From assembly GCA_964016885.1 (NCBI GenBank), contig OZ024741.1:216876001-216940000 (forward strand): a stretch of DNA of 64,000 nucleotides, given 5' to 3'. Each line of letters opens with the position of its first letter. The stretch's first letter is position 1. The stretch comes from Eledone cirrhosa. Its lineage: Eukaryota. Below the pieces are notes generated by a model. It saw nothing but the letters and a program-made list of their open reading frames with translations, was not told where the DNA came from and ran no database searches. Both the position numbers and the translations under genes were made by a program. Positions 10,915 through 29,678 of this stretch are shown piece after piece.

Positions 10915-11550
10915 TGTCCACCTTCAGATCTGGACCAAACCAGACCCCGAGCAATTTCACCGGTCCTTCCGTCCAGCGTCCAACGACGCTGTCGTCCGGC
11001 ATGGGTTTGTCTCTCCATGAGTTGAAAACCGACAGGCTTGTTCGGGTTTAGTCTTGCTCCTGTCAACGTTTCGTATTCCTGTAATAAGTTCCGATCACCC
11101 CGATTTCCGAGGTTTTCGACACCATTATAGGCCGACGCTGCTTTTCGCAATGATGGTTCGATTCGGATGCCCTGCAATAGCAGTAATGGCTCAAGAGTCA
11201 ATACATACAGAATGGAGGAGAGAGGGTCCTTGACGGATGGAACGCATGATTTGGAATGGCTCCGATTAGGTAGCCACAAGGTTCTCGAGTACGAGCGCCA
11301 ACCTCGTTGCTAACACCTTGGCCAAAATCTTCAACTCTGTGTTGAACTTTTGTTCTCATCTTTCCTGGTCAGCGTTACTACATCTCTGCTTACATAATTA
11401 GGAATTCTCTCGTTCTGTTGCCAGTTGCAGTAGACCACTTTGAGGACCTCAGAGAACCAGTCTGGTATGCCTATGTAAAACTCAATAGGGTAGACCATCT
11501 ATACCGGGTGATTTGCGTTTCCCACAGTGGCCTAGGATGTCTTCTATTTG
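10915..11550 (-). pseudogene. Old, internally deleted Tx1 ORF2 relic (copy D)
   Basis: QIEDILGHCGKRKSPGIDGLPY, KILAKVLA, PLSSILYVLTLEPL and YETLTGARLN are collinear with ORF2 of the neighbouring copies, with large gaps. Confidence 0.85.
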
Positions 11551-11617
11551 ATAGATAGATATATTTCTTTATTTACCATAAAGGCATAAAAAGGAGGGAC
11601 AAATACAAAGGGGGAGT

Positions 11618-26300: not shown

Positions 26301-29010
26301 CTTGTGGTCTGAATAGCCAACCATGAGCATTTCTGGACAACTTAAAAAGTCCCTGTCCTTATTTCTAACTAAGAACCTATCTAGGTACGATCTAGATTGA
26401 CCGCTACGATTTGACCAAGACCAGGTTGGCACCGTCGGAAAATCTAGTCGAAATCTATCGGCCAGGTCAAATCGGCCGAGTAACCCCTTGAGTAACCTCT
26501 CTATCGGGACATGCCCCTGCATAGTCCCAACGTGCATCCAGGATACCATTCCAGTCCCCCACTAAAAGCAGGGAACGGGACGTCCTTAGAAAAGACTCCA
26601 GACGCTGGAAAAAGTCGGGCCGCTCTGTCCCAAAAGGGGCATATGCGGCTACCAGCCTAAAGGCTCCACCTTCACCACTGCCAAGGTCCAGCACCACCAG
26701 TCGACCCCCCGGGTCCAAGTGAACTATCTGTGTGGCGAGACCCTGATGTTTTTGCAGCAGAACAACAACCCCACCTCCACCTCCGGGCTGACAGAGAGAT
26801 GCGTTCATCTGAAAGTCATCAAAGGTGGGGGCTAGCTGTCGCATGCTGCTGATCCGGGCCTCGCAGATAACCATCAGATTTATAGATCGTGCCCTGAGGT
26901 CATTTAGAAGCATTGCTTGCTTCCAAGATGAGCCCAGGCCACGCGCATTTAGACAGCCTACTCTGAGCACAGCCATGTTGGTGGTAAGGAGAAAAGGCAC
27001 TTTCCTTTCTGCGTCCCGGGGAGCGGGCCGCTCAATTTCCATGAGGGTTGGGGATGGGTTGTTTGGTGGGGTGGTGGTTTGTGGAAGTGTAGGGGCATCA
27101 GTGTGTTGTGGGGTTGGGGTGTTTGTGGTTGAGTGGGTGTCTGGGTGGGTGTCTGGGTGGGGGTGAGGAAATTTAGGAGGACACGGTTGATTGGCTTGGA
27201 GCAGGGGGGCACGTCCTCCGTGAAATTTATTTTCAAAGTTTTATATAAGTTCATTGGGACTTTAATCATTCGTAAATGAGGTAGTCCCACAGCAGTTAGA
27301 AAGTTAGGCCCTTCAGTTTGGACCGAAGGGTTTGACGAAATTGTGTTCATTAGTTCTTTGTTGTCTGTGTTCATCTATGTATATTGTAAAGTCTTTTTTT
27401 GCGTAGCAGTTAGTGTTGTGTGACGGGGAGGGGTGGTTTGTATATAGTTGGTTTTCTCTTGGGGAGGGTTAATGCTAATAGGTGTGTCTGTGGTGCGCCT
27501 CCTCTTCTTTCTTTTTACTATTTGGAAGGGATCTTTTTCGTCTTGCGACGAAAGGGGTTCGTCTTCCTTGTTGGGTGGGAGGGGTATATTTTCTGGTAGT
27601 GTTTGCGGTGTGTGTGTTTTTGTATTTGTTTTGGGTGGGAAGGGGTTGGGTGGGACAGTATTCTGTGTTGTTTTTTCACGTGTTTGTTGTTGTTGTTGTG
27701 GTGGTGGTGGTGGTGGTGGTGGTGGTGTTATTGGTTTTCGTTGTTGTTGTTGTTGTGGTTGTTTTTGTTGTTGTTGTTGGGGTGGTGTTGGTGTTGGTTG
27801 TTGGGGTGTTGGTAGCAGTGGTTTTTTCGGTGTGAGCTGGGGACAGGCAGCCCTCAGGTGACCTCTATTGCCACAGAGGTAACAGGAGGGACGCCTACCC
27901 TCCACAATAATGTTGAGGTGGGTACGGCCATCCAGCATGACGCGCTCAGGGATTTGGGCGATACGTTCTGGCCTTATTTGGGTCAGAACTTCGATACTCG
28001 TTCCACTGAACGCGTCGCCGGATGCCTTCCCTATTGATATAAGGTTGTCCTCGTCTCAATTGAGGAAACCGGTTAGTAACCACCAGTAGTTTATGTTTGG
28101 GGTGATGGTGGTTATCCATATTCTTTGGGTTTTTTTACTCATGTAGGTGGGGAAAAAGGTGTAGTGTGTGGAACGAATTGGCGACACAGTATTTTTTCGC
28201 CGCCAATTCGTCTTTCATCAATATGGATAAACTCCCATAGTGTTTATCCTTTTGTATGAAAATAATGTCTTTCATAGCTTCTTTCAGTACTAACTGAATT
28301 TCAGCTTGAGATGGTTGTGCTGGTTTTTTTGTTTTGTTTGAAATTGTACGGAATACGACAGTTCGTAATTCCGTCTGTTTTTTTAGTTCTGCAGGCGAAT
28401 TTATAGAAAAAGAACCATTTTCGCCAAAAGATACATATTTTTTGGCTTTTTCAAGCATTTCTTTGGCATTTGAAATATCCTCAAGCACATATGTAACTGA
28501 TATTTTAGCCGTTTGTGCAAAAGATATTTTGTTTTCATTGTTGGTGTTTAAATTGTTTTGTTTCTCGTAATTTGAATTGTTTTCATTTTTGTTGTTGTTG
28601 TCTTTCTCCTTTGGTGTGTTGGTTTTGTCATTGTTTGTGTTGTAATAAATTGGGTTTGCACCCGTATTTAATTGTTTGTCTGGCATATCGCCTTTTACCA
28701 AGTCGTTTACAACGTTGGCGCGAGAAAGCAAAACGCTTTGTACCGCTTGCTTCTTTCTCTCTTCTTCCTTAGTGAGCGTGGCGTTATCGTCAACACGTGC
28801 TGCAGACATGGCGTCAATTTTTTACCATGTGAGTTAGCAAAAATTGTTTGGAGTAGTTTTTACCCCCAAACGGGGTAAAAATACGATGACCACCCGTCTA
28901 CAGACCTAGCCGGGTGGTTAAAAGGCACGAAGACAACACAATAAAGATACAAACACTTACTGTCAATGGGTAAAATTTCAAAAAGGCAGGAGCCGATGTT
29001 ATACACGTCT
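23327..29010 (-). mobile_element. Full-length but degraded Tx1 element of a diverged subfamily, copy C
   Basis: ORF2 is split over 26467..27042, 26064..26549, 25147..26028, 24688..25137, 24516..24788 and 23557..24654; ORF1 pieces include CYLCGNRGHLRAAC; degenerate (GATA)/(GACA) tract at 29020-29170. Confidence 0.92.
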
Positions 29011-29678
29011 ATACTATACGATATAGATAGATAGATAGATAGATAAATAGATAAACAGACGGAGAGACTGACAGATAGACGGACAAGCAGACAGATAAAC
29101 AGACATACAGGCTGGTAGACAGGTATTTGGTGGATAGATAGATGGGAAGATAGATAGATAAATAGATAGATACACACATACACACATACACACATACACA
29201 GGTACACATACGCGTACACATACACTTACATACATACATACACACATATACACACACGTTTACCTGGAACCAACCATAGCAACTGTTAAAGGTGTGTGGG
29301 ATTTTTCTTTCCGTTTTCCGAAACGAATATGACATCAAAATACTGACTCATTATAAGTTGTTTTCTTCTGACAGAACTTATGACTTATCATAAGTGTATT
29401 GCATCATAAGATCATGATATTATAACAAGTTTGTAGGTCGCGTAGTTTTGTTTTTATTGGTGCCTTCGAAGTGGTGACTGGAAAATTGGAAGATGGTGCA
29501 GTTGGTCACGCTCAGTATAAACAATACAAAACATATGGAGGCGAAGAAATAACTCGAACGCTAATCAGGTCTGTGTTGTTGTTGGCAGCCATTTTGAATC
29601 CATACCTCCTACTACATATATGACTTCAATAGTCGTAGTATTGGCAAGTTTATTGTCTAAATCATCATCATCCTCATC

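Follow-up and report, generated by a model that had tools for sequence, protein, structure and literature searches.

A head-to-tail stack of LINE copies, likely of the Tx1 type, at a GATA microsatellite of Eledone cirrhosa suggests an insertion preference for this repeat

Among long interspersed nuclear elements (LINEs), several families of the Tx1 group insert into simple repeats, with (TC)n, (TTC)n, (TTCC)n and (TTTC)n as recorded targets: Kibi (in (TC)n) and Koshi (in (TTC)n) of teleosts, and crocodilian Tx1 elements in (TTCC)n/(TTTC)n, a family being taken as target-specific when one sequence type occurs in more than 20% of its flanks (PMC4494074; here as below, cited works are drawn upon for the parts of their text available to us). 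It is established that target-site duplication can lead to stacks through repeated insertion, and tandems of this origin have been described for the Drosophila R1 array (with 33-nt spacers of ribosomal DNA), for jockey and P dimers (bioRxiv 10.1101/158386), and for tandem SINEU-3 copies around a target-site duplication (PMC4494074). We compare with these systems a stretch of 64,000 nt from the octopod Eledone cirrhosa (contig OZ024741.1, positions 216,876,001 to 216,940,000; hereafter the window, numbered from its first letter), in which three near-full-length LINE copies (A, B and C) and one relic (D) stand head to tail in the order D, A, B, C, all on the minus strand, around one GATA repeat. 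We consider it reasonably probable that an octopod Tx1-type lineage prefers (TATC)n/(GATA)n, and that the stack was built by repeated independent insertions.

The joints D/A, A/B and B/C consist of TCTATTT followed by 3, 24 and 22 GATA units, and in element sense they read AATAAA, 6-8 nt, (TATC)22/24/3, AAATAGA and 2 nt: the C/B joint at 23232..23326 (minus strand) is (TATC)22-AAATAGA, the B/A joint at 17328..17430 (minus) is (TATC)24-AAATAGA, and the A/D joint at 11543..11561 (minus) is (TATC)3-AAATAGA, the longest possible target-site duplication there being 19 nt. The initial annotation of this DNA had reported that the 18-mer TCTATTTGATAGATAGAT recurs at 11543, 17328 and 23232; this was borne out, with no fourth site in the window even when one mismatch was allowed and a chance expectation of 0.00 in 100 shuffles. 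Its description of four copies in the same orientation also stands, but not that they are separated by (GATA)n alone, as 7 nt of D and 2 further nt are present as well. The bases after AAATAGA are TA where B begins (23230..23231, minus), GG where A begins (17326..17327, minus; non-target) and AG where D continues, and the GG may be untemplated or cap-derived. AAATAGA itself is in frame with D (AA ATA GAA GAC ATC CTA, against GAG ATA GAG GAC GTG CTG in C), and D-like reads continue past 11532, in frame, into the homolog of A 13841-13873; the earlier assignment of this motif to the coding sequence of D therefore agrees both with the codon alignment to C and with the reads, and the identical joints support the accompanying proposal of a target-site duplication copied twice. 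As also noted then, A and B have an identical 5' end (ATCTAGCTGTCG) and different 2-nt junctions. A scan of the window for tRNA and Rfam RNA genes found none, which rules out an RNA-gene target there. Elsewhere in the window, a hairpin at 36417-36531 (arms of 57 nt, 91% complementary, with a 1-nt loop) has at its centre GGATCTAGCTGTCG, identical over 14 nt to the A 5' junction, GG included; this motif has 2 matches in the window and 0 in 100 shuffles, and its occurrence in the hairpin may reflect chance, a shared promoter-like motif or a captured 5' end.

Copy B (17431..23229, minus) is full length with both open reading frames (ORFs) intact. Its ORF2 (17648..21085, minus; 1145 aa) encodes an apurinic/apyrimidinic-type (APE) endonuclease, a reverse transcriptase (RT) with the YADD motif and a C-terminal zinc knuckle, with Pfam matches to PF03372, PF00078 and PF13966 (the last at 26.9 bits, just below the 27.5 cut-off); its best solved relative is human L1 ORF2p (E 1e-50), R2 being weaker (1e-20), and the predicted endonuclease keeps the residues aligned to what we take to be the catalytic motifs of the human protein. 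ORF1 (21119..22996, minus; 625 aa) gave no match when compared with Pfam; it contains one CCHC knuckle (CX2CX4HX4C) at residue 311, preceded by a region resembling RRM/ZCCHC3-like proteins, and has a low-complexity C-terminal half. An RRM-like region with a CCHC knuckle, unlike the coiled-coil type of L1, is a trait of Tx1 ORF1 proteins, and B displays both parts, the RRM one at the level of a lead (Atlas feature matches to zf-CCHC/RRM/ZCCHC3-like of 0.90-0.92, which count as a lead only). Copy A (11562..17325, minus) is likewise full length, with ORF1 split over two frames relative to B and ORF2 open from the ATG at 15160; a 56-bp deletion takes its stop codon together with part of the 3' untranslated region (UTR), and it terminates in AATAAA-GAAA. 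A poly(A) tail is absent from A as from all other copies, and in folding the 3' UTR has no more than a modest advantage over shuffled sequences (z -2.2). Copy C (23327..~29020, minus; 5' end approximate) is near full length and belongs to another subfamily (75% overall identity, 80-85% aa in ORF2), with a broken ORF2 recovered in five tblastn pieces and two frames. Copy D (10911..11549, minus), detected by tblastn and blastn at 67-74% identity to A, B and C, is a relic of the RT region (approximately ORF2 residues 443-766), disrupted by stops and frameshifts and shortened by internal deletions; its 5' boundary lies at the TATC run and its 3' part is lost. A high-copy repeat at 10750-10914, past the end of which (10914) some 15,000 reads diverge, marks a cut where the lost 3' part of D would lie. 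The "three ages" formerly ascribed to the copies are better described as three sequence subfamilies (A/B at 97.2%, C at 75%, D at 67-74%), with decay rising in that order.

Copies A and B match at 5582 of 5741 aligned bases, and the single-base codon differences in ORF2 comprise 32 synonymous and 22 non-synonymous ones (ratio of non-synonymous to synonymous rates, dN/dS, 0.21; binomial p against neutrality 2e-8), while ORF1 gives a dN/dS of 0.30 (9 multi-change codons excluded). With C as outgroup the B branch carries 14 synonymous and 5 non-synonymous changes and the A branch 14:14, which implies that A also decayed after its insertion. Furthermore, 76 of the 159 substitutions fall within the first 1000 columns, clustered in the 5' UTR/ORF1. 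As the differences thus bear the mark of purifying selection, A and B appear to be separate insertions rather than a duplication or an assembly artefact, and we consider their independent insertion likely; the initial annotation had already argued for independence from GG versus TA, and dN/dS together with the 5'-to-3' gradient of divergence is the stronger evidence. A and B could instead go back to a single insertion that unequal exchange between the duplications has doubled in place, or to the joining of two alleles during assembly, given their identical 5' end and AAATAGA boundary, the identity of 99-100% that stretches of their 3' third reach, and the report that unequal exchange can expand dimers (bioRxiv 10.1101/158386). 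Local duplicates or alleles would, however, differ neutrally and evenly along their length, and the synonymous skew, the 5' clustering and the differing 2-nt junctions together make this explanation very improbable. The stack has the traits of arrays built by repeated insertion, namely a duplication kept at each joint and neighbours of independent origin (A and B by dN/dS, C by its 75% identity).

With regard to affiliation, the nearest named relative is a protein of Argonauta hians (67% identity over 40% of the 800 residues searched), and a metagenome scan yielded only distant relatives (24-44% identity among the best 80 of 359). In the RT tree (50 of 97 rows, with anchors known by their flanks and no named Tx1 or L1 sequence included) A, B, P0001 and P0060 (the Argonauta protein) form one clade (100/100), which is sister (100/100) to a group only ~41% identical; both are placed within a 38-row group that holds U2-, U1-, 5S- and tRNA-flanked elements (89/91, unstarred, on a long branch), and the corresponding grouping in a 97-row FastTree has a support of 0.744. 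The U1 and U2 flanks were identified with Rfam on 49 loci, and the others are, by eye, what we take to be 5S and tRNA flanks. RNA-gene flanks of this kind are found in the related Tx1 families Mutsu and Dewa. Tx1-type membership of the octopod lineage, as earlier proposed, is on these flank-based grounds likely. A snRNA-type flank signature has also been described for the Tx1 family Keno (PMC4494074). The 3' flanks of U2-type loci begin with GTATCTG, and these, taken with the TC-type microsatellite targets, indicate that a TC-rich top strand fits the clade. Tx1-type elements were also seen beside or inside U1 snRNA genes (L118:3036-3199 and 9961-10137; L038:9202-9356), the L118 contig belonging to a metagenome-assembled genome (MAG) labelled Metamycoplasmataceae.

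The case for GATA as a target begins with the 5' flank of C (29023..29172, minus), where (TATC)n passes gradually into a degenerate microsatellite of TATC/TGTC, upstream of which no family 3' end occurs. As the host-like DNA of the window has 1 (TATC)n-type run in 23,842 nt (from which single run the chance of meeting one at a junction is calculated as ~0.1-0.3%), this flank supports a GATA preference, and the 5' boundary of D falls in the same TATC run. Part of B is present in 9 of 13 listed sequencing runs, and the reads of four runs were mapped to reference 10750-17350, X3 and X10, with a small share or none, being left out of account. In X11, a run of restriction-site-associated DNA (RAD) sequencing, a C-like copy truncated near 12796 joins (GATA)n of at least 7 units via a shared GATAG (111 reads), and ~2 units, together with a family 3' end, stand before a second C-like copy cut near 12805-12811 (73 reads), a joint that we read as a stack at another locus. 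On the sequences at hand, the estimate of a likely preference for GATA rests on one 5' junction in the window, the D junction in the same run, and these two read junctions. An X5 end at 12453 (8 nt of C, then loosely GATA-like sequence) was not counted as a junction, and CAAG and TTTGC were dropped as candidate non-repeat target bases, since C sequence accounts for both. Searches with the C-terminal alignment among GTDB and IMG/VR contigs, and with the full alignment among viral contigs, found no further copies; the 21-nt 3'-end pattern matched 2 bacterial contigs, taken as chance.

Several observations weigh against a GATA preference with repeated insertion. The D junction may mark where a deletion ends and not where an element inserted, and either A or B may have come before the other. 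Both read junctions are C-like, not A/B-like, and each may represent one locus; as the reference contains GATA, GATA joints could show as joints, so that the read evidence (24 loose ends, 15 joints and 12 fillers listed, with 3054, 352 and 139 more beyond these) is biased towards GATA. Among the 24 loose ends listed no element 5' or 3' terminus occurs, the readable ones reflecting subfamily divergence and not junctions. Moreover, the Tx1 placement depends on flank signatures rather than on named references, on a branch that is unstarred, and the sister lineage stacks without a microsatellite, none of its 67 3' ends having at least 2 TATC units in the next 40 nt.

These sister elements (40-43% identity) have 39 of 45 loci on contigs binned into MAG CAXXMW01 (G001), which is labelled Arenicella and holds 84 matches to the alignment. 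Their TA-rich flanks and LINE content suggest that the LINE contigs of G001 are animal-like DNA, and the 16 LINE-array contigs with microsatellite-rich flanks (C3-C15 and C17-C19; loci L081-L117, L121 and L125-L157) are evidently mis-binned eukaryotic DNA; the host flanks of the MAG and the window have only microsatellites in common, and we therefore do not equate the two hosts. The elements fall into about seven subfamilies (92-96% apart, one at 58%), and every subfamily has an array of its own, with up to 13 units, intact ORF2s, and spacers that vary more than the units. On the 16 contigs poly(A) follows 0 of the 67 3' ends, and most ends are succeeded by a 16-18-nt spacer common to the array. 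In C18 this 16-nt spacer is host DNA: besides separating units 1 and 2 it precedes unit 1 and recurs in an empty host duplicate. The two units are distinct, with 97.6% identity over the ORF2 region and 76% over the 5' part. C17 carries near-identical 18-mers in its middle and at either end, and the array spacer is missing from the end of the 5' host flank in C19, C4 and C3. Where neighbours within an array have 98.8-100% identity, there is room for unequal exchange as well as for RNA-carried spacers, and the sister sample was itself selected through binning, which favours array contigs. Six 5' boundaries of first insertions in this lineage have no common host motif, and the endonuclease loop aligned to the L1 hairpin differs between the octopod and sister lineages.

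Since the sister clade stacks without a microsatellite, one has to weigh the alternative that the lineage inserts behind its own 3' ends, whether by recognising the 3' end or by pairing of read-through RNA with an old duplication, GATA being merely the spacer of this locus or sub-lineage. The head-to-tail arrays of G001, the closest relatives retrieved, lack both TATC and poly(A), and the host spacer of C18 recurs between two different units; in addition, A, B and one read locus each lie behind a family 3' end, and A and B end at the same base despite ~20 available registers. This account does not explain the TATC flank of C, which has no family end upstream, or the 12796 read junction with its 7 or more GATA units; the G001 arrays were chosen by binning, most of their units can be explained by unequal exchange given the near-identity of neighbours, three of them begin without the array spacer, and the endonuclease loops of the two lineages are unlike. 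By either route, we consider self-stacking of this kind unlikely.

Another alternative is a LINE of loose specificity: its endonuclease would not be GATA-specific, pairing of its (TATC)n tail would do no more than bias priming towards GATA runs, and this locus would be a local hot spot. It can draw on the 22-24 perfect units at the 3' ends of B and C, on the absence of a common host motif at the six sister boundaries, on an unrelated RTE-like relic 1 kb away that ends in (TAGA)7 (so that LINE tails do seed GATA runs in this genome), and on the effect of RNA-target pairing on SART1Bm and R1Bm priming (PMC7265360). A and one read locus, however, have at most 3 units after the 3' end, a tail cannot make the GATA-bearing 5' junctions of C and the two read loci, and two insertions were cut at the identical base; on balance we find a tail-biased LINE rather unlikely. 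A bolder reading would let the target of this tail-less lineage be set by the few bases that the RNA reads past AATAAA: each sub-lineage would take over as its guide whatever 3' flank the donor had, namely TATC repeats for octopods and 16-18-mers unrelated to these for the sister arrays. Although this is quite doubtful, copies would, if it held, home to their own old duplications and switch target without a change of endonuclease.

Under the preferred reading, that of a GATA-seeking lineage, the process would start from elements that, as seen here, encode an APE endonuclease and an RT and end in AATAAA-GAAA without poly(A). The endonuclease would nick the GATA strand near the edge of a run and reverse transcription would start at the RNA 3' end, probably aided by base pairs between UAUC/UCUA and the nicked GATA primer. 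A second nick, its position suggested by the three identical joints, would fall 7 nt beyond the run, after the AAATAGA of D, so that at most 19 nt would be duplicated and an intact target would remain on either side of each new copy. A and B very probably came from two different active sources, using the restored site in turn, and C, of another subfamily, very probably entered the run before them. That A and B both end after the same base, in a run offering ~20 registers, points to a preference for the run edge or to a short run at the time of insertion. The 22-24-unit runs behind B and C might in part be read-through of donor flank carried by the RNA: 24 units would be hard to reach from 3 by slippage, which makes a carried tail plausible for B and C, to whose 24 and 22 units the indication is confined. 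Such a tail would help stacking without being required, as duplication alone gives every copy an intact site on either side, and past the duplication A has no further sequence. The initial suggestion that the tail regenerates its own target accordingly goes beyond what the window shows: duplication suffices, A and one read locus have at most 3 units after the 3' end, and the sister lineage stacks in the absence of any microsatellite.

Elsewhere in the window, the RTE-like LINE relic (~9000-9990, plus strand; its clade is presumptive) has a last frame ending in WRELVHGSREFYPP-stop, followed by (TAGA)7, and its GATA run has the orientation that the Tx1-like family would enter antisense. A 228-codon frame (974-1660, minus) bears a resemblance to the C-terminal RT region of Penelope-like elements. 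At 6117-7353 there is a 1.2-kb array of the (TGG)n type, open in several frames, and a stop-to-stop open frame of 7645 codons (38844-60182, plus), with Thr/Pro-rich PTTT repeats, resembles a mucin-like exon of ~21 kb.

Our literature search, which did not extend to Repbase, Dfam or Kojima and Fujiwara 2004, retrieved no GATA-targeting Tx1, an earlier description thus being possible, and the available text of PMC4640811, PMC8869645, PMC3747384, PMC5753468 and PMC3812793 does not name a GATA target. For Octopus vulgaris, 13 recently active L1-Tx1 families with 421 insertions have been reported, in an article whose main text, as available, holds no target analysis and never uses the word "target" (PMC13282606); these families may possibly include the GATA-flanked one. 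Should the preference be real, (GATA)n and cephalopods would join the targets and hosts of Tx1, and the intact copy B would supply an endonuclease that can be assayed on a simple repeat. Moreover, the octopod and sister lineages would make a testable pair for apportioning LINE target choice between endonuclease and RNA-DNA pairing, and, for octopus genomics, growing LINE stacks might contain or adjoin some of the GATA marker loci.

Compared with the described systems, the octopod lineage resembles Kibi, Koshi and the crocodilian Tx1 elements in being an APE-RT element of the L1/Tx1 group within a TC-containing microsatellite; it differs from them, as far as a comparison by description goes, in its TATC unit and cephalopod host, every joint here being (TATC)n and none the (TC)n or (TTC)n of Kibi and Koshi. 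For SART1Bm and R1Bm of the R1 clade, where pairing between RNA and target at priming has been discussed (PMC7265360), the likeness lies, judging from the available text, in a short-repeat target and in RNA 3'-end pairing as a possible aid, whereas the clade is another one, SART1Bm needs the poly(A) that octopod copies lack, and the copies described here are known from sequence. With the R1, jockey, P and SINEU-3 tandems the window stack has in common its head-to-tail arrangement and the target duplication at each joint; it differs from them in its target, the edge of a microsatellite next to an older relic of its own lineage, and in that three subfamilies have one site in common. We thus consider it probable that (GATA)n adds a microsatellite to the targets of an established type of site-seeking element.

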